A DNA stretch of 64,000 bases from Nitrospirota bacterium (GTDB taxonomy: Bacteria > Nitrospirota > UBA9217). The position numbers and the translations under genes are program-made. The notes under the pieces are model-generated. The model saw nothing but the letters and a program-made list of their open reading frames with translations. It had not been told where the DNA came from and did no database searches. Numbering within the stretch: the first letter of the stretch is position 1; the number at the start of each line of letters is the position of its first letter. Positions 14,817-52,585 of this stretch are shown one piece after another. The stretch is from positions 1,376,001 through 1,440,000 of the forward strand of contig OY760142.1 in the NCBI GenBank assembly GCA_963663225.1, in the 5' to 3' direction.

Positions 14817-16996
14817 TTAGGGTGAGAACCGCCCGGACGCGGATGATTGTGAAGGATTGTGTGAACAGGAGTCGAGTATCTGCCGTATCTGCACCAGGAG
14901 ATCGCGGGATTCAAACGGTTTTTGAAGGAACCAGGCGACAGTATTGATGTCTTCTTTCTCCGCGACATATTTCATGTAGCCTGATATGGCCAGCATGCGT
15001 ACCTCGGGGTTAATCGCCCGCAAGCGGTGCATGAGCTCTTTCCCGTCGAGCCTCGGCATTACCATGTCCGTAATCACCAACGCCACCTCGTCCGACATTC
15101 TGTTGAACACTTCCAGACCGAGGATGGGGTCGTTGGCCGTCAGGACCTTATATCCATTTGAGGTGAGCGTCTCCTGAATTGCACTCAGGATGTCTTCTTC
15201 GTCGTCGATAACCAGGATGGTTTCCGTTCCTCTCTGCGGCACCAGCAACGGCCGTGATCCGGGTGCGGGGGCTTCGCGAAGAACAGGAAGGAGGACTTTG
15301 AATGTGGCGCCGCTGCCGACGCGGCTTTGCACCACGATATACCCTTTATGCTCCAGTACGGCGCCATAGCACATGGCAAGACCCAGCCCCGTTCCTTTTC
15401 CTCGTTCTTTGGTGGTAAAGAATGGTTCAAATATTTTTTGCACCAGGTGCTCCGGAATGCCGACTCCTGAATCCGTCACACTCATCTGAACATAGTCTCC
15501 CGGCAGGACATAGGGCGGGACATCAGGGGTATTTCCGGGGACCTGCAAAACAGCAGTTGTGAGAACGATTCTGCCTCCCTGGGGCATCGCATCCCGTGCA
15601 TTCACCACGAGATTCATAACGACCTGTTCGAGCTGGTTGAAGTCGCCTTTGACAAGAGGAAGATTTTCCGACAAGGCCAGTTCGAGAGATATGTTTTTAT
15701 CGAGAACCCGTTCCACCAGTTTGGCGGAGTCAGTTATGATGTCATTGATATTGATGGGGAGAATTTCATAATTGCTCCGACGGGCAAATCCCAAGAGCTT
15801 ATTTATCATAGCTCCTGCTTTGCGCGATACATCTTCAATGACCTGGAGGCTCCGGAGAGATTTTGCGTCCAGAGAAGGGAAAAGCCGGACAATTTCCGTA
15901 TGGCCGAGAATTGCGGTCAGAATATTGTTGAAATCATGCGCGATGCCTCCTGCAAGCACGCCGATGGATTCCATCTTCTGAGATTGAAGGAGATGAGACT
16001 GTAGTTTCCTCTTTTCCGTGAGGTCCCGATAAAAAGACTGAATCAGCAAGGTGTCTCCGATTGCCACTGCTTTTGAGCTGATTTCAAGCGGCAGAGCAGT
16101 TCCGTCTTTTTTTATCTGCACGGTTTCAAAGTTAAGCGATTCTCCGGCAAGCAGGCGGGCCATTCTTTCCTGGACGACAGAAGGCGTATTTTCGGCCAAG
16201 AGACGCCACACCGAGGTCCCTATCAATTCTTCCCTGGTGTACCCGTGCATTTCGCAGATTCTATTGTTGACATTAACGATTAAGCCGTGTTTGTCGATAA
16301 CAGAGATTCCGTCGGTTGCATTTTCAAACAGCGCCCGGAGCTGCTGCTCGGAGTTTTGGAGCTCCTGAGTCCGTTCCTGGACCATATTTTCAAGCTGATG
16401 AGAATAGGTTTCAAGCTGTTTTTTTTGCTGTTCGATGTCATATTGGAGAGAGAGCTCCCGGACATATCGCAAATGCATAATGTAGCGTAAATATATCAGT
16501 GCGAGAGAACAGTAGAGAATGAAAAAATTTGCGTTGATAAAAAAAGGCCAGTCTGTAATCGTGTCATACATCAGGATGGGGACCAGATATAAGGAGTAAA
16601 CAATAACGAGAATGAAAATACTTACATTGAGGCCGAGCGGAATAAGTCCAATGCAGAAAATCGCCGATAATATCATGCCCGCAAAGTAGGGGGAACGGTG
16701 GCCGCCAAAGTGGAAGATCATGACACTCACCATGCCCGAAACAATGACTGCTGCGAGAATGGTCAGAAAATGGTGCCGGTTCCTGCTGGCTTCTTTTCTG
16801 TTGAAAAGAAACAGTATGAAAATCAGTGTCCCGCAATAATTCTGTAAAACAGAAAACGGGCAAAGTTTTCCGGAGTTACAAAATAGTCAAGTATGCATAA
16901 ACTGAGTATGACGAGAGAGCCTAATGCTATGGCGTAATTGGACCAGTAATGGAGCAGTTTGACAATGTTGCTGCTGATATATTCGTCTTTGGTCAT
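14817..16996 (-). CDS. Membrane hybrid histidine kinase (PhcS-like TM sensor, PAS, HisKA, HATPase, REC), with apparent 1-bp frameshift near 16830
   Basis: AGGIAHDFNN, NARDAM, GKGTGLGL, REC domain; N-terminus MTKDEY...LDYFVTPENFARFLFYR lies in a different frame from the 16733 ORF. Confidence 0.85.
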
Positions 16997-17051
16997 ACAG
17001 CATTATATTAGCATACGGTCCCGGCATGCGCAAATTAATTTATGATGGCAG

Positions 17052-18473
17052 CTAGAGCAGGCGCTCCTTCCGTAAAATTCTCCGTGCCGTATCATGGCCC
17101 CCGTAGCAGGTTCCCGGCATGCCGAATGCGATGCTTGTCCAGTGGCCGGTCAGGTACATACCGCGGATATCCGTCGTTCTGTTGAAAACCGGATCGTAGG
17201 TCTGCGAAGGCGTTTTGTCCCATCCGAAAGAAGCCCCGTGATGGTTCAGGGTATATCGGTGCAACGTGTGAGGAGTTGCGGCATCAACATAAGCAATATG
17301 ATTTTTAAGCGGTGGCAAAAAAGCAATTACACGGTCTAAAAAATCATCGGCGATTTGTTTTTTATTCTGTTTCCAGAATTCCGCGGACTGAAAGGGAGCG
17401 CCCACAAAAACGAGAATTGTTTTCTGATCGGGCGCCACACGCAGCATAAACATGCCCGACTCCCTGAAATTGCAGTGTTGCGTCTGTATGAACATTTCAT
17501 CCAAATCATAATGAGGGAGATGCCAGGTATTTGTTCCTGGTGCCGGAAGCTCCGGAAATCCGCTTTTCAGTCCGACATATAAAATGACATTGGACGGCGA
17601 AGGCGTTAAGTGTTCCAACGAAGGGACGAGGTCCTGGCGGCCGTGAGCTTCACGGAGCAGGTTGTTGAATGTCGCGGTGATGTCCACGGCGGACACAACA
17701 TATTTTGCGTTTCGGATGGTATCATCGTCCAGGACAATGCCGGCGGCTGTTTTGTTTTTCACGAGGATTTTTTTTACCAATCTGTTATACGCAAGCGTTC
17801 CGCCGTGCTGCTGAATGATTTCAGCCAGCGCATCAGGCAGATTTTGCATCCCTCCCCTGGGATAATAGCCGCCGTCCAGAACGAATTCACTCAAAATTTT
17901 TGTGGCGCTGAAGGCGTGCATCCGGGAAGGCGGGAGTCCGCCGTTTCCGAAGACCGGCGCGGCAAGGATGCTCTTCAGTTTTTCATCGGAGAAAAAAGCG
18001 TCCAAAAGCTCCCGAAACGTTTTATCCTTCAGTTTTGTAAATTCCGACTGGCGGGATGAGGTAAGAAAATCATAAAACTTACTGAAATTACTTTTTTCAG
18101 AGGGGAAGGATTGATCAACACTGTCCTGCGTTTTCCGTGCATCGCCCCAGAAGGTAACGGTATGGTCGGGCGAGACAATGATATCGGACGGGTCATGTCT
18201 GTCAATGGTGATTTTTCTGTCCACGCCCAGTTCCGTGAAGATTTTGCGCACGTGTCCGCCCTCTCTGTAATTCCCGAATGAATGCGCTGCGGAGTCGAAC
18301 AGAAATCCCCGGCGTTTGAACGACGTGAAATATCCCCCCGGCTTGTTGTGCTGCTCCACGAGAAGGATTTTCAAACCTGCCTTTGCAAGATAGCAACCGC
18401 AGACGAGACCGCTTATGCCCGCGCCGATCACAATGACGTCATATGCGTCGTTCTCCCGATCAAGCGTTGACAT
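17052..18473 (-). CDS. Phytoene desaturase (CrtI)-like FAD oxidoreductase
   Basis: VIGAGISGL, EQHNKPGG..SFKRRGFLFD, YPRGGMQ, ATPHTLHRYT, LTGHW. Confidence 0.85.
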   Translation of the reverse strand: MSTLDRENDAYDVIVIGAGISGLVCGCYLAKAGLKILLVEQHNKPGGYFTSFKRRGFLFDSAAHSFGNYREGGHVRKIFTELGVDRKITIDRHDPSDIIVSPDHTVTFWGDARKTQDSVDQSFPSEKSNFSKFYDFLTSSRQSEFTKLKDKTFRELLDAFFSDEKLKSILAAPVFGNGGLPPSRMHAFSATKILSEFVLDGGYYPRGGMQNLPDALAEIIQQHGGTLAYNRLVKKILVKNKTAAGIVLDDDTIRNAKYVVSAVDITATFNNLLREAHGRQDLVPSLEHLTPSPSNVILYVGLKSGFPELPAPGTNTWHLPHYDLDEMFIQTQHCNFRESGMFMLRVAPDQKTILVFVGAPFQSAEFWKQNKKQIADDFLDRVIAFLPPLKNHIAYVDAATPHTLHRYTLNHHGASFGWDKTPSQTYDPVFNRTTDIRGMYLTGHWTSIAFGMPGTCYGGHDTARRILRKERLL

Positions 18474-18723
18474 TTGCCAATCCCTGTTTTTGCATTTTTT
18501 TCACCACAGCTATCGCGTCCTGCACCGTAGTGATTGCCGGAACGTCCTCGTCCCGAACCGATATCCCGAATTTCTTCTCTATTGCAACGGTTATCTCGAT
18601 TGTCTTAATGGAATCAACCTCCAGATCCTGCATGATTTTTGTATTCGGTGTGATTTCCTCCACGTCAAATCCGGAAACATCCGATATTATTGCTATGACT
18701 TCTTTCTCAACATTTGTGTCCAT
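18460..18723 (-). CDS. Acyl carrier protein
   Basis: DLEVDSIKTIEI phosphopantetheine motif; acidic 87 aa. Confidence 0.9.
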   Translation of the reverse strand: MDTNVEKEVIAIISDVSGFDVEEITPNTKIMQDLEVDSIKTIEITVAIEKKFGISVRDEDVPAITTVQDAIAVVKKMQKQGLANVNA

Positions 18724-18733
18724 GGCTTTCTCC

Positions 18734-19951
18734 TTATATGATGAATTTTTTTATGACCAGCGAGGCGTTATTGCCGCCGAATGCATAGGAATTATTGAGC
18801 GCGATAGTGACGGGCTGCCGTCTTGCATGGTTCGGTACGCAGTCAATATCGCACTCCGGGTCCGGTGTCTCATAGTTCATGGTGGGCGGTATGGTGTCAT
18901 GTTTTACCGTGAGGGCGCAGGCAACCGCTTCAAGGGCCGAGGCAGCGCCCATGGTATGGCCAAGCATTGATTTTATGGAACTAATGGGTATGTTTTTAGA
19001 CCGCGCTCCGAATACTTTCTTGATGGCGGCGCATTCTGCGCGGTCATTTGCAGGCGTTCCGGTGCCGTGGGCGCTGATATAATCAACCGTATCCGGAGTT
19101 ATACAAGCCTCCTGGATGGCTTTTCTCATACACGCGGCAATTCCGTCCACTGCAGCAAGCGTCATATGACTCGCGTCGCAGCTCAAACCATAGCCGAGAA
19201 TTTCCGCATAAATCGGTGCCTTTCTTCTGAGCGCACGTTCGAGGACTTCCAGCACGAGCACCGCAGCCCCTTCGCCGGGGATCATCCCTTTTCTGTTTTT
19301 ATCAAAAGGCCGGCACTGTTCCGGCGCCACGGCCGAAAACTGGTTGAAGCCGGTGTACTCGATGCGGGAAATGCCGTCGGATGCTCCTGCCAGAACGATA
19401 TCGGCTTTCTGCAATTTCAACAGATCATATCCGTATGCAATTGCGTAGTTGCCGGCCGAACATGCGGTTGAGGTCATGAAAAGCGGTCCTGTGCACTGGA
19501 AGCGCTTCGCGATTTCGGCAGGAGCTGTGTGTGGCGGCATTTGAGATAATATGCCCGGGGAGACCGGGCGGCCCTGAATAAGACAGTCATCGACGTCCTC
19601 GATAGCTTGTGCGGCACCTAATGTCGTTCCATGAGAAACAGCAACGACGGCCTGCTTCAAATCATCAGGAGAGAGCGCGGCATCCATCACCGCAAGGTCA
19701 GCCGAAGCCACTGCCATCTGTGTGGCCCTGTTCATCCGACGCACACAGTTGGCATACAGGAACTGATCAGGATTAAAGATTTTTACTTCGCCGCCGTTAT
19801 GAGTGAAATGTTTCGATGTATCAAAAGCCGTCACCGGACTGATACCGGACTTTCCCTGGAGCAGGGCTTCCCAGAACGCATCCTTGCCGATGCCGATGGA
19901 CGATATGGCTCCCAGTCCTGTAATCACAACCCGCTTATTCGTATTTAGCAC
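18734..19951 (-). CDS. fabF: Beta-ketoacyl-ACP synthase (active KS, FabF-like)
   Basis: TACSAG, AHGTGT, KSMLGHTMGA: intact Cys-His-His triad. Confidence 0.9.
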   Translation of the reverse strand: MLNTNKRVVITGLGAISSIGIGKDAFWEALLQGKSGISPVTAFDTSKHFTHNGGEVKIFNPDQFLYANCVRRMNRATQMAVASADLAVMDAALSPDDLKQAVVAVSHGTTLGAAQAIEDVDDCLIQGRPVSPGILSQMPPHTAPAEIAKRFQCTGPLFMTSTACSAGNYAIAYGYDLLKLQKADIVLAGASDGISRIEYTGFNQFSAVAPEQCRPFDKNRKGMIPGEGAAVLVLEVLERALRRKAPIYAEILGYGLSCDASHMTLAAVDGIAACMRKAIQEACITPDTVDYISAHGTGTPANDRAECAAIKKVFGARSKNIPISSIKSMLGHTMGAASALEAVACALTVKHDTIPPTMNYETPDPECDIDCVPNHARRQPVTIALNNSYAFGGNNASLVIKKFII

Positions 19952-20375
19952 TGAATATCATCTCCGCTTCTGTAATTTTTTTGCCTTCCACGAAAGCTTC
20001 GCCGGATACACAGGCTCCGGTCGGCAGCGTTTTGATGTTCTGAACGCGTATCGTTATCTGATCACCGGGGACCGCAGGATGCAAAAACCGCGCTTTGGCT
20101 GAGCCGAAAAAATACAGCGGTTTTTTGCTTTCGTCCGGACGATTCGCATGCAGCGCGAAAAGAACAATGGCGGTCTGGGCCATGGCTTCCAGGATAAGCG
20201 CCCCCGGCATGACGGCTTTTTCCGGAAAATGACCCTGCATAAACGCTTCGTTCCCGGACACGTTTTTAATTGCGACCGCGTGTTTTCCCGGCTCCGCTTC
20301 CAACACCCGGTCGATCATAATAAATGGATACCGCTGGGGAATCAGTTTTTTTATTTTTTCAAAGTCAATACGCAT
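19935..20375 (-). CDS. fabZ: 3-hydroxyacyl-ACP dehydratase
   Basis: PQRYPF, GHFP..AVMPGALILEAMAQ. Confidence 0.9.
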   Translation of the reverse strand: MRIDFEKIKKLIPQRYPFIMIDRVLEAEPGKHAVAIKNVSGNEAFMQGHFPEKAVMPGALILEAMAQTAIVLFALHANRPDESKKPLYFFGSAKARFLHPAVPGDQITIRVQNIKTLPTGACVSGEAFVEGKKITEAEMIFSAKYE

Positions 20376-20378
20376 TCG

Positions 20379-21614
20379 TCACCTTGCATAGCGGCTTACG
20401 ATAACCGCAGAGTTCTGGCCGTACGGGTCCACGGCCGTAACGAGCACATTCCGGAGTTCCTTCTTGCGCGCCGTGTTCGGAACAATATCCAGATCGCACA
20501 AGATGTCTTTTTCAATATAATTGATTGTGGGAGGTATGCAGTTTTTTTGGACCGCTCCGACAGCCGCGGCCAGAGACAAGGCGCCCGAAGCCGAGCAGGA
20601 TTCTCCTATCATGGATTTTATGGAGGTTACCGGAACTGCAACAGCCTGGTTTCTGAAGATGTTTATTATGGTTGCAGCTTCCATCCGATCAAGACCGTGC
20701 GTGGAGTTCGCGCAGGCGCAGATGTAGTCAATATCGCAGGGCTGCAACGCCGCATTCTTTAAAGCCAGGGCGATTGCGGTCTGAAGTCCCTGTCCCGCGT
20801 GCGTGAAATCGCCGTTTGCCGAGGGGTCGAAAGCAGCGGCGTATCCCGTAATACGCGCAAGTGGTGTCGTGCCTTTTTGCAGGGCGTACTGCTCCTCTTC
20901 CAGCACGAGAATTGCCGCTCCTTCAGAAAGGATTGCGCCGTTTCTGCGTGCGTCAAAAGGGCAGCAAAGAGGTTGTGAACCGTTTGTGCCAGAAAGCATG
21001 CCGAGATTGAGAAGGCCGAGAAATGTTTCCTCGCACAGTTCCTCCACTCCGCCCGCCAGCACCGTGGCGGCCCTGCCCAGTTTTATAAAGTCCGCCGCGT
21101 ACGCAATCGCGTCCATGCTCGCGCAGAATCCTGTTGATATTGTCGTATTGAAGCCTTTTATTTTGAATCGGATCGACACCTGGCTGGCCGGCGAGTTTAT
21201 AACAGTATTCGGAAAATGCGACGGATTAACGGCACGCGGACCCTCGCGAAGGCCTGTCCGGTCGAATTGAGAGATGCTGTGCAGGCTCCCGTACGTTGTG
21301 CCGATTGCCACGCCCATTGCGCTTGTTGTGTTTTCAGTGATTTCGAGTTTGCCGTCGTCAATGGCCAGTTTTGCAGCGGCACAAATGAGACGGGTGCTCC
21401 TGTCGAGGTCGCGGAGCCCTTTTTTCCCGAGAAAGGAAACGGGATCGAAGTTCGGCGTCTCGCCGGCCATGCTGACGCCGAACGCACTGGTGTCGAACAG
21501 GGTTATCGGAGCAAAGCCCGAGTTGCCCAGGAAAAGGTTTTCCCAGAACAGCTCTTTTCCTATTGCGACAGGAGAGAGAATCCCGATGCCGGTTATTACG
21601 ATATTATTGCCCAT
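20379..21614 (-). CDS. Ketosynthase homolog lacking catalytic triad (chain-length-factor-like)
   Basis: KS fold, but STGFCAS / ICACANST / SMIGESCS stand in place of TACS / AHGT / GH. Confidence 0.8.
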   Translation of the reverse strand: MGNNIVITGIGILSPVAIGKELFWENLFLGNSGFAPITLFDTSAFGVSMAGETPNFDPVSFLGKKGLRDLDRSTRLICAAAKLAIDDGKLEITENTTSAMGVAIGTTYGSLHSISQFDRTGLREGPRAVNPSHFPNTVINSPASQVSIRFKIKGFNTTISTGFCASMDAIAYAADFIKLGRAATVLAGGVEELCEETFLGLLNLGMLSGTNGSQPLCCPFDARRNGAILSEGAAILVLEEEQYALQKGTTPLARITGYAAAFDPSANGDFTHAGQGLQTAIALALKNAALQPCDIDYICACANSTHGLDRMEAATIINIFRNQAVAVPVTSIKSMIGESCSASGALSLAAAVGAVQKNCIPPTINYIEKDILCDLDIVPNTARKKELRNVLVTAVDPYGQNSAVIVSRYAR

Positions 21615-21684
21615 GCTTTGTCACGTCCTATCAACAGGGTGACGCCCTGTTAAAATTTAGCAGCACTGTTTGCACAAACACATT

Positions 21685-22437
21685 TTATATTCCCAATCCG
21701 CCGTCAAGCTGCAAGGTCTGACCGGTGATGTACTGCGCCCTGTCACTGAGCAGAAATACCACCGATTCTGCAACCTCTTCAGCAGTGCCGAACCTCTGAA
21801 GAGGGATGTTTCTTAAAAAAAGCTCCTTCATTTTCGGGGCAAGGGTTGCGGTCATTTCCGTGTCGATAAAGCCGGGCGCCACAGCGTTCACTCTGACATT
21901 ATACGGTGCGACTTCCTGCGCCAAAGACTTGGTAAAACCGATCAGTCCTGCCTTTGCGGCCGCGTAGTTTGTCTGACCAGGGAGCGGATGGATGCCGCCT
22001 ACCGAGGAAATGTTCACGATGGCCCCGCTTTTTTGCTTCAAGAACGTGATGATCGAGGCGCGGGTAATGTTAAAGGCGCCGTTCAGATTGGTATCAATGA
22101 CATCATGCCAGTCTTCCGGGCTCATCATCATCAGAGACTTGTCCCTGGTGATTCCGGCATTGTTCACTAGGAAATCGAGCTTTCCGAATTCTTTTCTGAC
22201 GGATTCGGCAAGCGTCTTGGCGCCATTGAAGTCCCTTGCATCAAGCAGAACGGAAAGGACCTTTCTGCCCATACCGCGGACCTCCCGCGCAAGCGATTCC
22301 GCCGCCGCATGGTTTTTTACATACGTGAAAGCGCAATCCACGCCCCGCGCGGAAAGGGCAAGGACGACAGCGCGTCCAATGCCTCTTGTTCCGCCGGTTA
22401 CGATCGCAGTTTTCTTGAGAAAGAAATTCTTGAGCAA
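21685..22437 (-). CDS. fabG: 3-oxoacyl-ACP reductase
   Basis: TGGTRGIG, NNAGITRD, YAAAK. Confidence 0.92.
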   Translation of the reverse strand: MLKNFFLKKTAIVTGGTRGIGRAVVLALSARGVDCAFTYVKNHAAAESLAREVRGMGRKVLSVLLDARDFNGAKTLAESVRKEFGKLDFLVNNAGITRDKSLMMMSPEDWHDVIDTNLNGAFNITRASIITFLKQKSGAIVNISSVGGIHPLPGQTNYAAAKAGLIGFTKSLAQEVAPYNVRVNAVAPGFIDTEMTATLAPKMKELFLRNIPLQRFGTAEEVAESVVFLLSDRAQYITGQTLQLDGGLGI

Positions 22438-22551
22438 GTTTTCACTCTTGAATCACTGCTTACAGGACCTGATGAAATCCCTGTGGTCCGGATATTTATT
22501 CAAACGCACCTGTCCGATCGACTATTGTCGTGAGCTTGAATATATCCGGCA

Positions 22552-23661
22552 TCAGGTATTTTCAGAACCAGGCGCTATCGCAATGTAAAAAATAATGGAG
22601 CCGGATTCGACCCTGGTCATTGACAGCGCGGTGTCGGGTATTTCCGCAAGCCGGAACAGTCTGGCAAAGTCGGGCTCGATACGCTGTTTGAAGCCGTCCC
22701 AGTCCACAAACCAGTGGTAGATTTGGGAGCGATAACGGGCAGCATCCTTGTACGCCATGATAAGCTTCCCGTCGGGCCGCAGAAGCCGGTAGAGCGTGTT
22801 CAGGAGTTTGATAAGAAAATCGTCGGGCAGGTAATCGAAATACCCAACGCTGTAGATAATATCCTGTGGTCCGAATTCTTTTTGAGCTGTTTCAAGATCA
22901 AACATTCTGAGCGCATTATAGGTGAGCAGTTCAACCTGATCCGACAGCAGTCCTGCCGTTGAAAAACGGTCGCGGGAGAAATTGAGGGCCTCCGCATCCA
23001 GATCGACGCAGGTAAACCGGGCGCCAGAGGCCTTGATCTCGGGAGCCAATTCGAAGACTTCCCTGCACGATCCGCAGGCGACATCGAGGACTTTCGGCGA
23101 TATTCTCGCTTTCAACTCATCCCGGAGCAGCTCTCTCAGCCTTTGTATGCGCTCTCTCACACCCACGCCGAGTGCCGAGTCGAGCAGATATTTGTCCAGG
23201 TAATATCCGATGCCGTCAGACAACGGCATGTTTTTGTACGCGAGTTCGAGCGTTTCAAAATCGCCCTGCTGCCCCCGTGGCCAGACGCGGCAACGGTTGA
23301 TGCAATAACTTTTGGAAAGAATGGGGTTGGTTTTTTCGCGGAAGGTGGCTTGTGCGGCCCTGATCGCCTCTGGATCTAGTATCTGCCGTTCGAACTGAGC
23401 GCATGCTTCAAGCATTGCGTCATTTAGCACGGTGATTTCAGCAAGAAGTTCGAAACGGTCGGCATCAGGTTGGTTGCATTTTGATTCGAAAAATCTAAGT
23501 TGCTGCAGATAGTCTGCAACTTTTGAATCAAGCAAATCTGCATATGGTTTTGTTTTTTCGCGAAGAAGCTGCGATGTCGCAGCAAGCTCCCCAGATTGAT
23601 ATGTCAGTGCGTTCTGCACGTTATCCCCCTTGAACGGTATGTTTACGGGTTTATCAGGCAT
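22552..23661 (-). CDS. Class I SAM methyltransferase, PhcB-like
   Basis: PRGQQGDFETLE, VLDVACGSCRE, YSVGYFDYL, LRPDG. Confidence 0.75.
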   Translation of the reverse strand: MPDKPVNIPFKGDNVQNALTYQSGELAATSQLLREKTKPYADLLDSKVADYLQQLRFFESKCNQPDADRFELLAEITVLNDAMLEACAQFERQILDPEAIRAAQATFREKTNPILSKSYCINRCRVWPRGQQGDFETLELAYKNMPLSDGIGYYLDKYLLDSALGVGVRERIQRLRELLRDELKARISPKVLDVACGSCREVFELAPEIKASGARFTCVDLDAEALNFSRDRFSTAGLLSDQVELLTYNALRMFDLETAQKEFGPQDIIYSVGYFDYLPDDFLIKLLNTLYRLLRPDGKLIMAYKDAARYRSQIYHWFVDWDGFKQRIEPDFARLFRLAEIPDTALSMTRVESGSIIFYIAIAPGSENT

Positions 23662-23716
23662 CCTGCCTTATTACAAACAATCTTTGCGGCTTTTCGCTGA
23701 GGCCGCAGATGGAAGG

Positions 23717-23815
23717 TTAGCGCGGGCCCCTGGGTGAGGGACGGATAGCGTTCTGCAAACAGCAGCAGGCAAGCTGCTTCTTCCGCTCAGCCGGCAATAC
23801 GAAGTTGCCTATCAT
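23717..23815 (-). CDS. Small 32-aa peptide MIGNFVLPAERKKQLACCCLQNAIRPSPRGPR
   Basis: Perfect SD TAAGGAGGTGATC directly upstream of ATG; first ORF of the cluster; below ORF-track cutoff. Confidence 0.6.
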   Translation of the reverse strand: MIGNFVLPAERKKQLACCCLQNAIRPSPRGPR

Positions 23816-25046: not shown

Positions 25047-25826
25047 ATGGAGCAGGGAAAAAACGATGTTCAGAAACAAATGAGGGAACACTCGAAGCCG
25101 CTGGTGCTGATCGTCGACAGCAACATCATGAGCCAGTTTACGACCAGCATGATCCTGCAGCGGCTGGATTATTTCGTTTATCCGGTGAAGACGGCAGAAG
25201 AGGCGCTGACAGCCATAAGCATTACCTCTCCGCACGTCGTGCTTGCAGAGACCGCCCTTCCCCAGATGAGCGGACTTGCTCTTCTGCAGAGGATTAAAAA
25301 AGACAAAGGAACAAAAAACATTCCGGTTATTATCTACACAAAGGAGCAGGACCAGTCTACACGCCAGGTATACCTGCAGGCGGGATGCGAAGGATATCTG
25401 ACGTACCCGGCTGATCCCAACCACCTGTACGAAACTATCCAGCAGGCGACGGAAGTAACACCCCGCCATTTTGTCCGGCTCAACACCAGTCTGGAAGTAA
25501 CCATTGGCAAACAGGGCGCCGCGGACCCTGCAGCGGCAAGGGAACGGGTGAGCGCACTGTCCGTAGACGGCATGTACGTAAGCACGGTAAAGCCCGTGCC
25601 GTACGGCACAATACTTCCCTTCACCCTGTTTTTGGAGGATTCACCGAACGGAAGCATCGGTCTTGAAGGGAAGGTGCTCTACAGCTACAGCTATGACGGC
25701 AGGGTGGGCGCGGTAAAGCAGCCGGGTATGGGCATTAAATTTACCAACATCCTTCCCGAGGACCGGATGCTCATAAAGAACTTCATCCAGAAAAAACTGA
25801 TGGAAGGAATCGCTGTTGCCATCTGA
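25047..25826 (+). CDS. Pseudo-receiver + PilZ domain protein
   Basis: Degenerate REC; RHFVR, LSVDGMYV, PGMGIKF. Confidence 0.8.
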   Translation: MEQGKNDVQKQMREHSKPLVLIVDSNIMSQFTTSMILQRLDYFVYPVKTAEEALTAISITSPHVVLAETALPQMSGLALLQRIKKDKGTKNIPVIIYTKEQDQSTRQVYLQAGCEGYLTYPADPNHLYETIQQATEVTPRHFVRLNTSLEVTIGKQGAADPAAARERVSALSVDGMYVSTVKPVPYGTILPFTLFLEDSPNGSIGLEGKVLYSYSYDGRVGAVKQPGMGIKFTNILPEDRMLIKNFIQKKLMEGIAVAI

Positions 25827-25865: not shown

Positions 25866-26417
25866 TTAAGGAGAACCGACGCCCGAAAAATCACCGCCTC
25901 CAGAACTGTACACGGACAGCCACACCGAAGGATCAAGCTGCATATGCAGGGTAACGGTATTGCCTTGCAACGAATACCACGACTGCAGGACCTCTGGAAT
26001 CCCGAATTCCCACGGCCGGTACAGAGGTTTTAATTCGTAGCCGATGGTTTTGCCGGCGTGATCAGGAATTTGTCGGAGCACCGTATTCCAGACCGTGTGC
26101 GCACTGCAATTAATAAAGGTGTTGGCCTCTTCCAGCGCCTGAGGACCCGGGAGCCCTTTTTTTATTTGATACATATTGTCCAGCGCATACACATCAAAGG
26201 CATAGCCGCTTTTTTCATCTGCCAGAACAGCCATATTTTCAATATCTCCGGACGATCTGCAGCCGTACAGTATCAGGGTGTACGTCGCATTGACCTCCGC
26301 AGGATCGGCTGCCTTTGGACGTAATTGTGTCCCTGCCATGCATGCCTGCATGGCGAGAGCCAGAACAAGGCAAATGCCGAATACGAGCATATGTTTTGTT
26401 TTTTTCATGGTGATCAT
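25866..26417 (-). CDS. Hypothetical lipoprotein
   Basis: Hydrophobic signal ending MQAC. Confidence 0.65.
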   Translation of the reverse strand: MITMKKTKHMLVFGICLVLALAMQACMAGTQLRPKAADPAEVNATYTLILYGCRSSGDIENMAVLADEKSGYAFDVYALDNMYQIKKGLPGPQALEEANTFINCSAHTVWNTVLRQIPDHAGKTIGYELKPLYRPWEFGIPEVLQSWYSLQGNTVTLHMQLDPSVWLSVYSSGGGDFSGVGSP

Positions 26418-27612: not shown

Positions 27613-27789
27613 GTTGTTGAGAGAAAAATTTTGATGTGTTTTTCGAAATGTTCTTTCTTCCAGTTGAATGCAAAAAAATGCATTATCCTGTTGCGTATGG
27701 GTAATGTTTATTTCTTGCCATAAGAAGACGATTTGGTATACTCATACCTGATTTTTCTATTATGCCTTCGGCCCATTAAGGAGAGAAAA

Positions 27790-28833
27790 GTGAGAAAGAA
27801 ATCGCACGTGATAGCGGCAGTATCGGCGTTCTGTTTGATTGTTCTCGGCTGCGCTCCACCATCGGTAGTCATTAATCAACTTGTTCCCGGCAATGCACCC
27901 GAAGCGCCGAAACTCAGAAGAGTGGCGGTATTGCCGTTTGACGGTCCTCGCGGAAAGGAAGTGGCGGCTGAGCTGGAGGCGTCCCTGTCAAATATCACGA
28001 TAGACGGTAAACAGTATTTTGAATTTATTGACCGGATGTCGATAGACAAGGTGCTGAAAGAAATGAACCTTTCCATGACCGGCCTGGTTGACGCCACTAC
28101 TGCCGTTAAAGTAGGCAAAATGACCGGCGCGCAGGGAATTTACACAGGCGTAATAACCACCGCCCGCACGAGCGACAACACGTACAGGGAAAACCGGACC
28201 CGCTGCATACGCACCGTCACGAAATATGACAAAAACGGCAAGGCCTACGAAGTCTGCGGCGAGCAGGAGAGTTATTCGGTTCCCTGCATAAACAGGGAGG
28301 CGGTTTTTTCTTTCACGCCGAAGTTGATCAACGTGGAAACGGGCAGAATTGCGTACGCGAACAATCTCGACGGCAAGGCGCAGTCCGCAGCCTGCAGGGA
28401 TGCCGCGACGCCGCTCGTGGATGCCCAGCAGCTTGCAGACCAGGCGAAGAGGACTGCCCTGGAAAAAATAAGAAAGGACATTGCTCCCTACTATGTTCAA
28501 AAAAAAGTAAGGCTCATGGATTCGGATGAGGGGGCAACTGAACCTGCAGCAGAGAAACTCAAAAACGGACTGGATTATGCTGAGAACAACAGATTCGACA
28601 GGGCGTGCGAACTCTGGGGGGAAGCCCGGGTCATCTCCCCCAAGGCGCCTGCCGTTCTGTATAATCTTGGCGTGTGCCGGGAGTCCATGGGAAACTATGA
28701 GGAGGCTCTTGCATTCTATATGGAAGCCGACCGGCAGCTGGGCAAGCCCGACAAACGCATCACCGAAGCACTGAAGAACACGAAGTCTTCCATTGAGAAA
28801 CAGAAAAGGCTCAAGGAACAGATGGGGCGGTGA
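27790..28833 (+). CDS. Lipoprotein with CsgG-like domain and C-terminal TPR
   Basis: Lipobox VLGC, RVAVLPF, AVKVGKMTGA, TPR AVLYNLG; GTG start with aaggag RBS. Confidence 0.75.
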   Translation: MRKKSHVIAAVSAFCLIVLGCAPPSVVINQLVPGNAPEAPKLRRVAVLPFDGPRGKEVAAELEASLSNITIDGKQYFEFIDRMSIDKVLKEMNLSMTGLVDATTAVKVGKMTGAQGIYTGVITTARTSDNTYRENRTRCIRTVTKYDKNGKAYEVCGEQESYSVPCINREAVFSFTPKLINVETGRIAYANNLDGKAQSAACRDAATPLVDAQQLADQAKRTALEKIRKDIAPYYVQKKVRLMDSDEGATEPAAEKLKNGLDYAENNRFDRACELWGEARVISPKAPAVLYNLGVCRESMGNYEEALAFYMEADRQLGKPDKRITEALKNTKSSIEKQKRLKEQMGR

Positions 28834-28842
28834 CAAGGAGTA
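28788..28842 (+). repeat. 55-bp segment (3' end of TPR lipoprotein gene), repeated at 29696-29750 and 33306-33360
   Basis: aaacagaaaaggctcaagga(a/g)cag(a/g)tggg..ggt.a.aag.agt present in three copies. Confidence 0.9.
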
Positions 28843-28926
28843 CTTCCTAAATCATATAGGAATGGACTACCGAACTCATATACAAGTTACTACTTGTAGT
28901 ATTTTTCACAACTCGCAGGAAAAATT

Positions 28927-29565
28927 ATGTATATGAAAAAACTTTTAATTCTAATAAGCGCTTTATCTGTATTCTCGTCACTGGGTTGTACTGCAATTGG
29001 CTCAAGGGATTACTATGCCGCTTATACGGCAAAAGGAATGGTCCACTGGAAAGATAACAGGGGTATTATATACTCATCAAAAAAACCGGACTCGATAACA
29101 TATTCAAAGGATAATTTTAAGTTAACAATATATACAAACACTTTAGTAGATTCAACGTATGCACTTGGTCCATGCATGCTCATACCCTTACCTGTAATTC
29201 CAGTATTTGGACTTGGTAAAGCCATTTACAGTGGACCGATCAGCGTAAGCTTTGATGTCGAGCAAATCGGCCCTTATCAGTTAATTAAAGCGAATGTACT
29301 GAAAAATAATGAAAATTTTTTACCAATAAATATTGAAACACCTCTTTCTCGCTCTGCTTTTAACCCATTTACGGAAAAAATACAGTTTCCGCTAGATCTG
29401 AATGAGCGAGGGATTTATTTTTATTTAGAATACAACCTATCCGTAACGTCTGTTGACTCTTTTGAACTTGAATTTACAGTGCAGAACAATTCTGGCGTTG
29501 TATTTCTTGAAGATAAAATATCATTTACCCGAGAGAAAACAAATTACTTTATGTGCGTCATGTGA
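28927..29565 (+). CDS. Hypothetical lipoprotein (AT-rich cassette gene)
   Basis: Lipobox SLGC; RBS agga. Confidence 0.7.
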   Translation: MYMKKLLILISALSVFSSLGCTAIGSRDYYAAYTAKGMVHWKDNRGIIYSSKKPDSITYSKDNFKLTIYTNTLVDSTYALGPCMLIPLPVIPVFGLGKAIYSGPISVSFDVEQIGPYQLIKANVLKNNENFLPINIETPLSRSAFNPFTEKIQFPLDLNERGIYFYLEYNLSVTSVDSFELEFTVQNNSGVVFLEDKISFTREKTNYFMCVM

Positions 29566-29750
29566 AGTAGGTAGGCTGGGTAGAGTAGAGTGAAACCCGA
29601 CAGATTTGATTATGATATCGGTGCTCAGAATATGGGAATCATTAAGACATAAAAGAGTCGTTGGGTTTCACTTCGTTCTACCCAAACTACTAACTTTCCA
29701 TCGATAAACAGAAAAGGCTCAAGGAGCAGATGGGGCGGTGATAAGGAGTA
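29566..29750. repeat. REPIN-like element type A, copy 1 (inverted GTAG REP pair) plus gene-end tail
   Basis: gtaggctgggtagag..gaaacccgac ... gttgggtttcac..ttctacccaaactac. Confidence 0.85.
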
Positions 29751-29758
29751 ACCCTTTT

Positions 29759-30190
29759 ATGCCTGGTTCTAAAACACCTAATAAAGTAAAAAAAACAGAA
29801 AAGCCACGTGAAGACTCGGAATACTACCAACCATATTCCGAGTTCGCAAAAAATCTTCGGACGTGGCTTATTGCTTACGGGATAGGAGCGCCGGCATTAA
29901 TTCTATCCAGCAAGTCCGCATGGGATGCAGTGAAAAGCTCCGGTCACTTTGCCCTGATAGGAGTATTGTTTCTTTTGGGCGTGGCATTGCAGCTTATCGA
30001 AGCGTTGCTGTATAAGCATGCGATGTGGCATCTTTATTTCAGCGAGCTCGATGCAGAGCACAAAAAGTCGGGTTGGTACAAAGTCGCGGAATGGTTGTCA
30101 GAAGCGTATCTGCTTGAGTTATCGTTTGATATGATTTCAGTCCTTCTTTTTATTATTGCTACGCTGTTATTGTTCTTGAGTTTTCTCTAA
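29759..30190 (+). CDS. Hypothetical 3-TM membrane protein (cassette-like)
   Basis: ORF with hydrophobic segments; its RBS AAGGAG lies within the repeated tail. Confidence 0.7.
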   Translation: MPGSKTPNKVKKTEKPREDSEYYQPYSEFAKNLRTWLIAYGIGAPALILSSKSAWDAVKSSGHFALIGVLFLLGVALQLIEALLYKHAMWHLYFSELDAEHKKSGWYKVAEWLSEAYLLELSFDMISVLLFIIATLLLFLSFL

Positions 30191-30476
30191 TGCAGGATTG
30201 CTTCCTGTACTTCTTATTTTAATCAGCTACACCGGATTGTATGTTTCATCCCGAAACTGAAAATACTTCCTGAAAAGCTGTCTCAACATCGTTGACAGAG
30301 AACAATAAAAAGCCTATATTCGTAACATAATCTTGCATAAATTAATCAGAAGTCGATACCGCCTAACTATGCACACATTTTGCAGTGTTGAATAAACCTG
30401 TAGATATGCGCGTTAACATACGGAGTCTGCTCAATGACTGGTTGAACCATATAAATAAAATAGGGAGGTACTAAAG

Positions 30477-31352
30477 TTGAGATATTTCGTATCAATCATT
30501 TTACTCCTCAGCACAGTCGTGAGCCAGGCAGCGGACACTAATCCTCATCAGGCTTCATTTCACGATCGTGTTATTGCAGTCTATAGCTTCCTCCCGAGGA
30601 CCCTTGACAACCCAAGACTTGAAGCCAAATCCAAGGAACTGGATGCCTTCTGGGAAGAAGTCAAACGTCGTGGCCCTGTGGGACTTAGCGACCTTCGTAA
30701 AGAGCTTGCGAGAGATGACTTGCCGGTGTTCTTCAATTACGATGGCGCAAAACTACTCTTATCCTTATCGAAGTCACGTCAGGACCGTGTTTTGGCTCTC
30801 GCAGCAATAAGTAAGACTGAATTGCGCGATGTCCAGTGGGCCGATTACTTCTATACAGTGCATTCGCTGGCCATGGACGGATTGGACAGTTCGGAGGCCG
30901 CTTTAAAGATTCTGGGAGAGGACAAATACCAAGTCCTTGTTCCACAGCATGCCCTCACACTTAATCAAGAACTCTGTTTGCTTTATTTACTAATGCCCAC
31001 GGATGAGTCTTTCTACCTGGAAAAAGCTGAAAAACGTCTATTTGAAGAAAAGAGCATTACGGCCCAGAAGAGTCTTCTCGGTTTGCTAGGATATTCGGTA
31101 ACACTACGCGGTGACGCTGCGATAGCGCGTTTCGCATCAGACTCGAAGCAGCCTGATGAAGCGCGTACTTACGCAACTAAGATTATCTCGGCCACAAAGT
31201 CTATGGGTTGTGGGTCGATAGTAGGTCTTTCTTTCATCTCCTATACGTCTCTCAAAGAGGATCAGCGTAACCTTTTCGGCCGTGTGAGTGACGAAGCCTT
31301 GTATGATATTAGGCGCGTACAATTAAAGCTTCGCTGTAAAGGTGCTAAATAG
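30477..31352 (+). CDS. Hypothetical secreted alpha-helical protein
   Basis: Signal peptide (SQA-A); TTG start with gggagg RBS. Confidence 0.7.
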   Translation: MRYFVSIILLLSTVVSQAADTNPHQASFHDRVIAVYSFLPRTLDNPRLEAKSKELDAFWEEVKRRGPVGLSDLRKELARDDLPVFFNYDGAKLLLSLSKSRQDRVLALAAISKTELRDVQWADYFYTVHSLAMDGLDSSEAALKILGEDKYQVLVPQHALTLNQELCLLYLLMPTDESFYLEKAEKRLFEEKSITAQKSLLGLLGYSVTLRGDAAIARFASDSKQPDEARTYATKIISATKSMGCGSIVGLSFISYTSLKEDQRNLFGRVSDEALYDIRRVQLKLRCKGAK

Positions 31353-31374
31353 AATAAGGTCCAACAAAACAATC

Positions 31375-31560
31375 CAGTAGGTAGGTTGGGCTGAACGTTC
31401 TTTGTGAAGCCCAACGAATACATGATGCTGTGAACTCTTACATATAACCATGCGCTATCGAAGGGCAAATACACCCGGAGCAATATACTTTTCACAATGG
31501 TATCGGAAACGAATAAAAACCTGTTGGGCTTCAGAATATTCAGCCCAACCTACGTTACTT
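31375..31560. repeat. REPIN-like element type B, copy 1
   Basis: gtaggttgggctgaa...ttcagcccaacctac; 186 bp, 3 mismatches to copy 2 by manual comparison. Confidence 0.9.
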
Positions 31561-31629
31561 TTTCCTGTAAGTCGCAATCTGCAACGGATCGTCGAGATGC
31601 ACAGTACTACTGATATCGTGTAAAATGAT

Positions 31630-32112
31630 ATGGAAAAAAAAGAGGAAAAATCTGGCAGTTTTTATGTTGAGGTACAAGACAAAAGGAAAATATGTTTTCC
31701 TAGAAGATGCATAGTGTGTGGAAAAAATGTGGATAATTCTATGATTGAATTTCCAAGTAACCCCGTTGGTTTTTTTGGTGGCTTTATATGGCAACTAGGT
31801 TTAAGCAAAAAAATATCCATTCCAGCTCATAGGGCATGCGGTTTAAGATTGAAGAGGAACAATTTATTTAGAAATATATCATTGTTTTCTCTAGCCACAA
31901 TTACGTTAGTTATTGGTATTTATCTTGATTTAAGTCGATGGCAAGTATATGGGTTGCTACTCGTTCTTTTGATTCCACCCGTATATTGGCAGGAGAAAAA
32001 TACACCACCTTTTGAATTTAGGCTTGAAGATGAAATATATGAATTTCGATTTGCAGATAAAGAATATGCACAAGAGTTCGCCGATCTTAACGGAGTATCC
32101 ATAAAGAAATAG
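31630..32112 (+). CDS. Hypothetical membrane protein with CxxC and HxxC motifs
   Basis: FPRRCIVCG, PAHRAC, TM segments. Confidence 0.7.
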   Translation: MEKKEEKSGSFYVEVQDKRKICFPRRCIVCGKNVDNSMIEFPSNPVGFFGGFIWQLGLSKKISIPAHRACGLRLKRNNLFRNISLFSLATITLVIGIYLDLSRWQVYGLLLVLLIPPVYWQEKNTPPFEFRLEDEIYEFRFADKEYAQEFADLNGVSIKK

Positions 32113-32318
32113 ACGCATAACATTTCGTTTGATATGGTGTGCGAAAAAAACACTAGCGTGTCAGCCCGGTAGGTGGTCGAATTAATCAATAACATATGCA
32201 AAATGCAAATATTCATATAAAATAATCGTGCCGGAAACTTCCTGTAAATTGCAGCTGGACTCAAATAAGCTAAATAGCAGATTATAATCCAAATTCATTA
32301 ACGATCTATAACTCAAGA

Positions 32319-32504
32319 CAGTAGGTAGGTTGGGCTGAACGTTCTTTGTGAAGCCCAACGAATACATGATGCTGTGAACTCTTACACATAACCATGCGCT
32401 ATCGAAGGGCAAATACACCCGGAGCAATATACTTTTCACAATGGTATCGGAAACGAATAAAAACCTGTTGAGCTTCACAATATTCAGCCCAACCTACGTT
32501 ACTT
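32319..32504. repeat. REPIN-like element type B, copy 2
   Basis: Near-identical direct repeat of 31375-31560. Confidence 0.9.
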
Positions 32505-32676
32505 GAGTTTTCTCTGATGTGATACTTCTTCCTGAAAGTTGTTATCGTTGCATTTCATTGAAACATATAATATTTCAAGCTAATATTTGATAGAATCTAA
32601 ACTAAAAATACCGAATCCGAACCGAATCCTATGGCGTTCATAGACATTTATTTAGCGCAGGCATATATTTTGCCAG

Positions 32677-33117
32677 ATGAGGTTTGGACCAAATAATGAT
32701 TCCTGCATATTGACGATGACTAAAAAGATATTTATCGATAAAGGCGGATACATTCAAGAACGTGTAGAGAATGACAACTCCAGACTTGTTCCATTCCCGG
32801 TTTGCCTTGCCATTAAGTACGGGGATAGTGTGTCTGCAGAGTGTCCCGACTTCATTCTAAGTACCGACGAATCGTGGGTATTCGTGAACACAGATATACC
32901 CCTGTCCGAAGGAACGCGAGTTCTGATTCATTTTTATGTTCCACCGGAAATTAAATTGCTAGCTGAAATACCAGGCACGGTATCGACTCCGAATTTGGAT
33001 AATTCAGCATATCCAAAAGGAGTTCTGGTAAAATTTAGCGCTGTTTCTCGCAAGACGATCAAACTCCTAGAAGGTTATATTGAAGGGAAAAAGCTTTTAA
33101 TCGATAAAAAAGCATAG
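32677..33117 (+). CDS. PilZ-like domain protein
   Basis: VFVNTDIPLSEGT.V.IHF..P...G.V....KGVLVKF. Confidence 0.6.
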   Translation: MRFGPNNDSCILTMTKKIFIDKGGYIQERVENDNSRLVPFPVCLAIKYGDSVSAECPDFILSTDESWVFVNTDIPLSEGTRVLIHFYVPPEIKLLAEIPGTVSTPNLDNSAYPKGVLVKFSAVSRKTIKLLEGYIEGKKLLIDKKA

Positions 33118-51940: not shown

Positions 51941-52585
51941 ATGAGCGATGTTCAGACGCAGCTGTTCTCGAGGTTTGGAAAAAAGTTTCCGGCCAACACA
52001 GTGCTTTTCCACGAAGGGGACCGTGGCGAGGACATGTACATTATCCAGTCCGGAAAGGTCAAGATCAGCAAGCGCATCCGCGGAGTGGAAAAAACGCTTG
52101 CCACCCTGGAAAAAGGGGAGTTTCTGGGCGAAATGGCCATTTTGAACGACAAGCCCCGTTCAGCGACCGCGGAGACGATCGAGGATTGTGATATGCTTGT
52201 GATCGACCGGAAAACGTTTGATTCCCTGATCCGCGGCAATGCGGAGATTGCGATGCGGTTTATCAAAAAACTTGCCGACCGGCTCCGTGAAGCCAATGAG
52301 CAGATGGAAGCCCTGATGATAAAAGACAACACCAGCCGGCTGATGAGCATTCTTGCACGGTCGGTGCGGGAACACAAAAAAGCAGGCGAGTATGGCATAA
52401 CAATTGAGGAACTCGCGGGACTTGCCGGAATCGATGCTTCGCATGCACGGTCAATCCTGGAAAAACTGGCGAGCGTCAGGATTCTCGAAGTGTCCGGCGA
52501 CAGGGTCCTGATAAAAAATCAGGAACAGGTGGACAGGCTCCTGCGCTATCTTGAGATGCGGGAAATTTTCGGGGAAATGTCATAA
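51941..52585 (+). CDS. Crp/Fnr family cNMP-binding regulator
   Basis: LFHEGD, GEMAIL..KPRSATA, C-terminal HTH. Confidence 0.9.
   Translation: MSDVQTQLFSRFGKKFPANTVLFHEGDRGEDMYIIQSGKVKISKRIRGVEKTLATLEKGEFLGEMAILNDKPRSATAETIEDCDMLVIDRKTFDSLIRGNAEIAMRFIKKLADRLREANEQMEALMIKDNTSRLMSILARSVREHKKAGEYGITIEELAGLAGIDASHARSILEKLASVRILEVSGDRVLIKNQEQVDRLLRYLEMREIFGEMS

Follow-up and report, generated by a model that had tools for sequence, protein, structure and literature searches.

Does a single operon of a Nitrospirota bacterium both build and sense a lipid signal of its own? The question is raised by a 64,000-nucleotide stretch of assembly GCA_963663225.1 (contig OY760142.1, positions 1,376,001 to 1,440,000 of the forward strand; hereafter the window, with position 1 at its first letter), in which a methyltransferase gene and a membrane sensor kinase gene bracket a dedicated set of type II fatty acid synthase (FAS) genes. 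A preliminary description of the window likened the two flanking proteins to PhcB and PhcS of Ralstonia, which make and sense 3-hydroxy fatty acid methyl esters. We give about even credence to the reading that one protein of the operon makes a lipid methyl-ester signal and another senses it, in the manner of Phc, that this pair has captured a private factory for the acyl chain, and that the sensor is broken in this strain.

From 23661 down to 14817 the minus strand carries tightly packed genes, all co-oriented and separated by gaps of -17 to 114 nt, which fits a single operon. The nine elements of the run first described were all found on this strand and in the same orientation, as follows:

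22552..23661, minus strand: class I S-adenosylmethionine (SAM) methyltransferase of 369 residues, with a Pfam methyltransferase domain at residues 170-323
21685..22437, minus strand: FabG, 3-oxoacyl-acyl carrier protein (ACP) reductase (ketoreductase); TIGR01830 at 302.8 bits against a cut-off of 297.75
20379..21614, minus strand: triad-less protein like a beta-ketoacyl-ACP synthase (KS) and resembling a chain length factor (CLF), from its alignment to the active KS; best PDB match 9s5h_C
19935..20375, minus strand: FabZ, 3-hydroxyacyl-ACP dehydratase; NF000582 at 149.6 against 113, His/Glu motif present
18734..19951, minus strand: active KS, beta-ketoacyl-ACP synthase; NF005589 at 401.4 against 387, Cys-His-His present
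18460..18723, minus strand: ACP of 87 residues with a DS motif; PP-binding at 48.2 bits, under all NCBIfam ACP cut-offs
17052..18473, minus strand: FAD enzyme of the CrtI/phytoene-desaturase family; Amino_oxidase at 108 bits, crtI_fam at 144.9 against a cut-off of 238.1
14817..16996, minus strand: hybrid kinase, whole; sensor of six transmembrane (TM) helices followed by PAS, HisKA, HATPase_c and receiver domains (Pfam)
16410..16996, minus strand: membrane sensor half of the kinase, about six TM helices, with conserved motifs and a 1-base deletion at 16829/16830
14817..16409, minus strand: cytoplasmic half of the kinase with PAS, HisKA, HATPase_c and receiver domains (Pfam)
23717..23815, minus strand: open reading frame (ORF) of 32 residues with a strong Shine-Dalgarno site, upstream of the methyltransferase gene

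The last of these, initially presented as a peptide gene, does exist as an ORF and is probably not a conserved peptide gene. It recurs solely in the nearest relative (loci L001 and L077, 87.5% amino acid identity), where four of six nucleotide changes are non-synonymous, and we therefore leave it out of the system; the other loci gave no match at E below 0.4. The flavoenzyme falls below the curated crtI_fam cut-off and is thus placed as a CrtI superfamily member only, with an acyl chain as its probable substrate. FabZ matches 7qv0_A best in the PDB (3.1e-34), barely above other FabZ entries. The remark that no thioesterase or acyltransferase was visible holds in Pfam and NCBIfam scans, which likewise detected no KSIII (the chain-starting ketoacyl synthase) and no enoyl reductase in the run. 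A cispentacin-type identity was tried and rejected: AmcF, AmcE and AmcB models scored 222 against 325, 104 against 140 and 31 against 80, and FabF and FabZ models outscored them. The genome is one 3.26-Mb contig with single copies of the methyltransferase and of the sensor domain, and the presence of five more KS paralogues elsewhere in it bears out the view of the operon's synthase as a private extra. Rfam gave no match between 14000 and 26600, hence no known riboswitch, the cyclic di-GMP (c-di-GMP) type included, and promoter and terminator scans found signals at or near chance (10 found against 10.1 expected; 21 against 13.7).

How constant is this arrangement among relatives? At least 673 relatives of the methyltransferase were found among 8000 candidates scored, and the 120 listed are all at least 58% identical to it. 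Against 1.84 billion representatives it matched 3128 clusters at E<=1e-3, which makes the family large, and 156 at E<=1e-30. Species genomes supplied 48 loci, 44 of them labelled Nitrospirota in the broad sense and the others Aquificota, Verrucomicrobia, 'bacterium' and 'Betaproteobacteria'. The NCBI label 'Betaproteobacteria' (L018, genome G001) is probably wrong; that genome belongs to the same order of 63 genomes as the window's nearest relative. Within this order the methyltransferase profile matches 46 genomes at E<=1e-5, and 43 strongly (best E 2.3e-47 or lower). Thirty-four further stretches from the order were added, 13 of which duplicated earlier loci, giving 69 distinct loci, nearly all from Nitrospirota. 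We counted a locus as informative if the kinase was seen or if at least 2.5 kb followed the last cluster gene, as was the case for 48 of the 69.

Of these 48 informative loci, 47 have a kinase homologue as the first gene downstream, in the same orientation. The preliminary description had staked its proposal on the kinase staying beside the FAS genes, and it does so in 33 of the 34 FAS-type loci; in all 14 pair-only loci it directly follows the methyltransferase. The sole exception is L015, and L036 is similar but too short to count. This gene order supports a functional link between the methyltransferase and the kinase family. The 14 loci that have the pair with nothing between mark the FAS module as an insert. 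On a tree of the methyltransferase core plus the cytoplasmic part of the kinase (37 loci), FAS-bearing and pair-only cassettes are interleaved, with at least four changes between them, and both rows from outside the phylum, L041 and L043, lack the FAS genes. What stays constant is the pair of methyltransferase and kinase; the FAS block is an insert that can move and has been gained or lost on four or more occasions. Several genomes hold two cassettes, one of each kind in G041, G027 and G031 and two pair-only ones in G006.

The insert varies in content as well as in presence. FabG belongs to the cluster in the window's clade and not in a second deep clade; in L009, L011 and L035 a radical SAM gene stands beside the flavoenzyme gene, and two of the three show a B12-binding domain that scores under its cut-off; the scanned loci L004, L012, L025 and L027 encode a second methyltransferase whose CMAS match exceeds the Pfam cut-off; and L010, L070 and L081 are without the flavoenzyme. 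Selfish or defence-type genes lie between the FAS genes in L013, L017, L019, L023, L028, L034 and L044, comprising PIN, HepT and its nucleotidyltransferase, an IS110 transposase, GIY-YIG, DUF559 and a 23S rRNA intervening-sequence protein. Ahead of the operon, on the same strand, loci of the second deep clade (L014-L039) carry conserved genes for the membrane proteins NfeD, SPFH/Band 7 and VTT/DedA.

If the insert moves, does any part of the pair move with it? We compared pairwise identities across 16 loci with full-length methyltransferase, both KS, ACP, flavoenzyme and kinase, using an intact relative (P0121) as a stand-in for the frameshifted window kinase and leaving out the near-copies L001 and L077. 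The flavoenzyme and the sensor half of the kinase are correlated (Spearman 0.66, Mantel p 0.0005), as are the cytoplasmic half and the methyltransferase (0.66, p 0.0005) and the ACP and the flavoenzyme (0.55, p 0.0005), while the sensor half is correlated neither with the cytoplasmic half of its own kinase (0.10, p 0.22) nor with the methyltransferase (0.04, p 0.31). The trees divide along the same line. A clade of the window with L011, L020 and L024 has support of 100 for the flavoenzyme and 99.9 for the sensor half, and a clade of L004 with L014 has 100 and 99.7; in approximately unbiased (AU) tests both are rejected by the cytoplasmic half (p-AU 1.9e-7 and 2e-57) and by the methyltransferase (6e-7 and 2e-82). 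Conversely, the grouping of L014, L017, L020, L024 and L034 is backed by the cytoplasmic half and the methyltransferase and rejected by the flavoenzyme (1.2e-5) and the sensor half (0.0046). The cytoplasmic half of the kinase thus follows the phylogeny of the methyltransferase and not that of the sensor half to which it is joined, and the conflicting clades indicate two or more transfers of a block of flavoenzyme and sensor half between the deep clades. In the 37-locus sensor tree, a branch with 99% support sets 13 pair-only cassettes, plus L084 and L007, apart from the rest, and the sensor half does not reject the 13 pair-only cassettes as one clade (p 0.51).

What kind of chain factory has been inserted? 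At the catalytic triad positions the downstream KS has Cys-His-His and the upstream one F (with a C adjacent), C and E, so the upstream protein had been called an inactive KS correctly. Against all PDB entries, the best match of the active KS is 9s5h_B (E 3.2e-135, 454 bits), followed by the ishigamide KS 6kxd at 332 bits; the triad-less KS best matches 9s5h_C (5.1e-108, 365 bits), followed by 9s5h_B at 245 bits and Bacillus subtilis FabF at 226. The triad positions of 9s5h_C read V/N/E. We infer that 9s5h is the structure of the amxFabF2/amxFabFmut pair treated in a preprint on anammox bacteria (10.64898/2026.05.19.726425). In the accessible part of that preprint, amxFabFmut has Val or Thr in place of the Cys and Asn, Glu or Cys in place of the two His, and forms with amxFabF2 a KS/CLF-like heterodimer that decarboxylates malonyl-ACP and can start chains, with crosslinking favouring C6-C8 (10.64898/2026.05.19.726425). 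The same part gives Cluster I as ACP, FabZ, FabF2, FabFmut, a phytoene dehydrogenase homologue and a B12 radical SAM enzyme, and terms it unique to ladderane producers (10.64898/2026.05.19.726425). By sequence, the KS pair of the window is the specific counterpart of the solved 9s5h KS/CLF heterodimer, a kinship to anammox Cluster I that the preliminary description overlooked.

The resemblance may extend beyond the KS pair. Cluster I of Kuenenia (kustE3603-3608) shares with the window an active KS, a triad-less KS, FabZ, ACP and a CrtI-family enzyme, each window KS matches its own 9s5h counterpart far above other KS entries, and in three relatives (L009, L011, L035) the radical SAM enzyme is present too. 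The two differ in gene order, the FabZ and ACP of the window are not specifically anammox-like, and the window has FabG and no radical SAM gene, belongs to a host that is not an anammox bacterium, and has the block flanked by the methyltransferase and the sensor kinase. The highly reducing type II polyketide synthase (PKS) of ishigamide (Iga11/Iga12) offers a second comparison: it too has an active KS with a triad-less homologue, a discrete ACP, and a ketoreductase and dehydratase with no enoyl reductase, and its structure 6kxd is the second-best match of the active KS. However, the best matches are the 9s5h pair and not polyketide enzymes, and the window is without amide-forming or aromatising enzymes.

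The kinship with Cluster I raises an alternative that we hold to be unlikely, namely that these are enzymes of a membrane-lipid pathway: Cluster-I-type enzymes would make an unusual fatty acid, the kinase would sense the membrane or the lipid and feed back on synthesis, and the methyltransferase would tailor the lipid. The KS/CLF pair is the counterpart of a solved heterodimer taken to be a ladderane-cluster enzyme, the three relatives with radical SAM have the full gene content of Cluster I, and Cluster I is described, in the available portion of the source, as highly expressed and tied to membrane lipids. A six-TM sensor without a periplasmic domain could read membrane properties, and the biosynthetic genes are intact here despite the broken sensor. 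However, 14 loci keep the pair without any lipid genes while the FAS block comes and goes at least four times; phospholipids cannot incorporate a carboxyl methyl ester; no PlsX/PlsY/PlsC-type acyltransferase was found in the cluster (Pfam and NCBIfam); and PilZ control, described below, and the occurrence of more than one cassette in a genome are easier to reconcile with signalling than with bulk lipid synthesis. The role of the cluster is unproven even in anammox bacteria: as far as the accessible text of one study goes, kuste3603-3608 expressed in Escherichia coli gave no new fatty acid, and kuste3607 did not substitute for CrtI (PMC4790861).

In a methyl-ester signalling model the methyltransferase would act on an acyl product. 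Its N-terminal 170 or so residues gave no Pfam match, it reached no NCBIfam model (CpaM, 37 bits against 180), and it has no close sequence relative in the PDB. The motif WPxGxxGD(F/Y)..LE, to which the preliminary description had drawn attention, is conserved family-wide, window residues P128, G130, G133 and D134 being invariant or nearly so among 78 aligned methyltransferases. An AlphaFold2 (AF2) model (pLDDT 92.1) predicts a helical N-terminal half on a Rossmann fold, and in Foldseek it lies nearest to small-molecule methyltransferases of the C- and O-type (SgvM at 9.5e-12, 3ocj, Rv2258c, SibL and CouO; 13-19% identity), with no CheR structure among the matches listed. These modelled neighbours argue against a protein methyltransferase, without showing carboxyl methylation. 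A protein atlas places unnamed methyltransferase clusters from Nitrospirota, Planctomycetota and Pseudomonadota near it, which serve as leads only.

The family also occurs in two kinds of fusion. In G031 (contig C266, L105 9316-16860, minus strand), the last 330 or so residues of a 2514-residue synthase with KS, acyltransferase, ketoreductase and dehydratase domains are this methyltransferase domain; there it occupies the usual position of a thioesterase. Two proteins of 742 and 749 residues (P0291 and P0292; 92% identical, on different contigs and from two sources) combine the methyltransferase with about 375 extra residues, of which one stretch aligns with the FabZ of the window (26%, E 3e-6) and a second hotdog repeat is read from motifs alone; Pfam detects neither. 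Such fusions tie the family to carrier-protein acyl chemistry. They bear on the idea that the methyltransferase modifies the kinase itself, in CheR-like adaptation, with the FAS genes as unrelated passengers. The constant adjacency of methyltransferase and kinase would suit that idea, as would a weak tblastn match under a CheR-annotated gene on a Deinococcus plasmid (27% identity, E 1e-4), but the Foldseek matches listed are all small-molecule enzymes without a CheR among them, the fusions to polyketide synthase and hotdog domains indicate acyl substrates, and FAS genes are retained inside the operon in more than 30 loci. We consider it very improbable.

The methyltransferase could also act at the start of or inside chain building, either by BioC-like masking of a malonyl- or dicarboxyl-ACP or by beta-keto C-methylation, and the product could still be a signal. 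BioC masks the free carboxyl of a malonyl group. The methyltransferase gene comes first in the operon, the cluster is without a KSIII starter enzyme, and the closest structures are C-methyltransferases acting on an alpha-keto acid (SgvM, E 9.5e-12) or within a PKS (CurJ). Against this, the anammox KS pair self-primes by malonyl-ACP decarboxylation, according to what is available of its description, which would make a masked starter unnecessary; the domain sits at the extreme C-terminus of the 2514-residue synthase, the place of chain-ending domains; and identities of just 13-19% leave the Foldseek matches uninformative on the methylated atom. A role in chain building therefore seems to us improbable, less remote than a CheR-like one.

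Longer relatives of the methyltransferase carry a regulatory domain that the preliminary description overlooked. An N-terminal PilZ domain is present in 24 of the 27 methyltransferases of at least 400 residues (E<=0.01), 17 of them exceeding the Pfam cut-off. Through this domain, signal production is probably under c-di-GMP control in many relatives. The methyltransferase of the window and its clade are without PilZ; upstream of the gene, however, lies a divergent neighbour:

25047..25826, plus strand: receiver-PilZ protein (Pfam Response_reg and PilZ)

This gene is retained in L001 and is not a general neighbour in other loci. Its product may, by conjecture, stand in for the PilZ domain absent from the window methyltransferase.

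Would the kinase be able to sense such a product in this strain? Its reading frame shifts after residue 56. Compared with the intact gene of L001 (95% identical), a single A is missing at 16829/16830, with no other indel and 101 mismatches over 2181 columns; the intact relative kinase has 726 residues and is 95-97% identical. Logan contigs from runs X1 and X3 covering 16400-17200, at depths of 20 and 38, are identical to the window without any indel; both runs come from one sample, possibly the source of this genome, and contigs may conceal minority variants. The same break in read-built contigs means that it is not an artefact of the deposited assembly. The preliminary description had spoken of a 'repaired kinase', thereby recognising the need of repair, and had drawn no consequence from it; the break itself stands.

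The sensor motifs are not peculiar to this broken copy. Both TM motifs pointed out at the start, lDYfvtPenF..Fl.yR and fGGhqS.YyAG, are present and conserved in 37 kinases. In the intact relative, PAS spans residues 219-330 and HisKA 348-407, and the receiver follows the kinase core. The Pfam family MASE8 (PF20968) matches below its cut-off of 26.2, at 14.0 and 14.5 bits (E 0.059 and 0.04), though across positions 2-154 of its 154. A search with the sensor half among proteins of at least 370 residues returned 20, all of 715-810 residues, and a precomputed Pfam column lists PF20968 for 14 of these 20. The GC content is 0.506 in the flavoenzyme gene and 0.421 in the TM-coding part of the kinase, a low value that may simply reflect hydrophobic codons.

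How close, then, is the likeness to Phc? In both systems a SAM methyltransferase gene comes first and a membrane sensor kinase lies downstream in the operon, and in 14 relatives the kinase directly follows the methyltransferase, as phcS follows phcB. As in PhcB, the class I SAM domain (window residues 170-323) follows a non-catalytic N-terminal region, which in the window forms the helical N-terminal half; residue R22 of PhcB lies outside the methyltransferase domain, to judge from the part of the source available. A second kinase-like gene follows the kinase in L007, L008, L010, L089 and L099 (397-791 residues, 27-28% identity to the first) and is not found in the window. The only copy scanned, that of L010, has the order receiver-PAS-HisKA-HATPase (receiver at 28.8 bits against a cut-off of 30.2) and thereby resembles PhcR, which is receiver-plus-kinase-like. 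As for names, ten of the 120 listed relatives carry the JGI product name 'extracellular factor (EF) 3-hydroxypalmitic acid methyl ester biosynthesis protein', which we take to be the KEGG definition of phcB, and two carry an NCBI name containing 'Nitrospirota'. No named PhcB stood among the homologues listed for the methyltransferase, and a tblastn search of a plasmid collection gave ten records, none from Ralstonia or Cupriavidus.

The differences are also plain. The chain would come from a private KS/CLF synthase and flavoenzyme and not from primary FAS, many methyltransferase relatives bear PilZ, and the phylum is Nitrospirota. PhcS consists of TM helices, HisKA and HATPase, whereas the kinase of the window is a PAS hybrid with its own receiver, and its PAS domain stands between sensor and HisKA. 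In CqsA/CqsS and LqsA/LqsS, the synthase of a lipid-like autoinducer is encoded beside a hybrid sensor kinase that has several TM helices and a receiver of its own. These systems share the logic only, in which an adjacent enzyme makes a hydrophobic signal that is sensed by a six-TM kinase domain without a periplasmic part, and their synthase is a pyridoxal phosphate (PLP) enzyme, not a methyltransferase. The phospho-accepting His of PhcS is at position 230, in the portion of the report available (PMC11960443).

On these comparisons a Phc-like cassette would work as follows. The KS/CLF-like heterodimer would self-prime by decarboxylating malonyl-ACP, as its anammox counterparts do, and together with FabG and FabZ would assemble an acyl chain of short or medium length on the dedicated ACP. 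Since there is no enoyl reductase in the cluster, the chain may remain unsaturated, and the CrtI-family flavoenzyme may modify it further by desaturation or isomerisation. SAM-dependent O-methylation requires a free carboxylate, so a hydrolytic step would be needed that is missing from the cluster. The preliminary description had the product released by the methyltransferase, for which there is no chemical basis, as SAM O-methylation acts on the free carboxylate; we propose instead that a separate hydrolytic step releases the acid, which the methyltransferase would turn into a neutral, diffusible methyl ester. The six-TM domain of the kinase would sense this product in the membrane, with output through the kinase's own receiver domain. 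Given the frameshift in the sensor gene, this strain would make the product without sensing it.

Several observations weigh against a sensed methyl ester, or against reading signal specificity into the shared history of flavoenzyme and sensor. The cluster is without a thioesterase, which leaves the release of the acid unexplained, and the structural neighbours of the methyltransferase in Foldseek give no pointer to carboxyl methylation. The putative link to PhcB comes from the product name that one source gives to those ten relatives, and among the top 150 representatives none resembles, in amino acid make-up, a high-GC protein of about 467 residues, so that any kinship to PhcB would be distant. 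The domain order of the kinase departs from that of PhcS. The anammox counterparts are held, in what is accessible of the literature on them, to produce bulk membrane lipids. The sensor is broken here and the biosynthetic genes are intact, which fits either a signal-blind variant or a product that mainly does not serve signalling. As to the shared history, the backbone rejects 'pair-only as one clade' just weakly (p-AU 0.042), and on the sensor tree the flavoenzyme-less loci L010, L081 and L070 group with the flavoenzyme-bearing L074, L072 and L073, respectively (support 97, 99 and 95), so that loss of the flavoenzyme leaves the sensor type unchanged. The type of tailoring enzyme, whether a CMAS-like methyltransferase or the absence of CrtI, was tried as a predictor of sensor type and found no support, as neither clusters on the sensor tree. 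The shared transfer of flavoenzyme and sensor half may be mere linkage: the two are physically adjacent, and one recombination tract would explain their common history. The clades tested were, moreover, chosen after the trees were seen.

The surroundings of the operon hold some further features. At 25866-26417 (minus strand) lies a gene for a 183-residue protein that has a signal sequence resembling those of lipoproteins and matches no Pfam family, found upstream of the methyltransferase also in L001 (85%) and in the pair-only L042 (47%). Six consecutive ORFs of 146-366 residues at 27733-33117 (plus strand), without a Pfam match at E<=1e-8, lie largely within the lowest GC content of the window (0.41-0.45, 28 to 36 kb), and this region may be an island. 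Cobalamin-independent methionine synthase (34063-36222, plus strand) is spread over two ORFs, N-terminal at 34063-34872 and catalytic at 34936-36222; the gene may be naturally split, or the genome may have a second frameshift or stop here. At 51941-55371 (plus strand), three cAMP-type genes are consecutive, encoding a cNMP-binding protein, a CHASE2 adenylate/guanylate cyclase and a class II phosphodiesterase-like hydrolase. Elsewhere in the genome, three more KS paralogues lie within about 20 kb at 2.98-3.00 Mb, with a weak CrtI-family match at 3,003,095, and may form a second lipid or polyene cluster.

We tentatively extend the reading of a Phc-like lipid-signal cassette to a system of lipid 'pherotypes' in Nitrospirota, which we regard as possible but on the doubtful side. 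In such a system the constant methyltransferase-kinase pair would adopt Cluster-I-type chain enzymes, the flavoenzyme and the membrane half of the receptor would be exchanged together, ladderane Cluster I would be an offshoot of a wider and older short-acyl toolkit, and at least some of the products would be diffusible methyl-ester signals under c-di-GMP control. The preliminary description knew of no account of such a system in this lineage, and our literature search likewise found none in Nitrospirota. We found no lipid-ester cell-to-cell signal described for the phylum, in which strong matches to the methyltransferase reach 43 of the 63 genomes of one order.

What Cluster I makes has been an open question since 2009. 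With its KS/CLF pair and a candidate read-out kinase, the operon offers a tractable route to what the anammox Cluster I enzymes make. According to the part of the preprint at hand, no in vitro ladderane synthesis has been seen and no ladderane producer is genetically accessible (10.64898/2026.05.19.726425). The cluster in the window contradicts the claim that Cluster I is unique to ladderane producers. If the pherotype proposal is true, the cassettes would be a clear example of signal specificity changing in modular fashion, the membrane half of the receptor moving in company with a tailoring enzyme and independently of its own kinase half.

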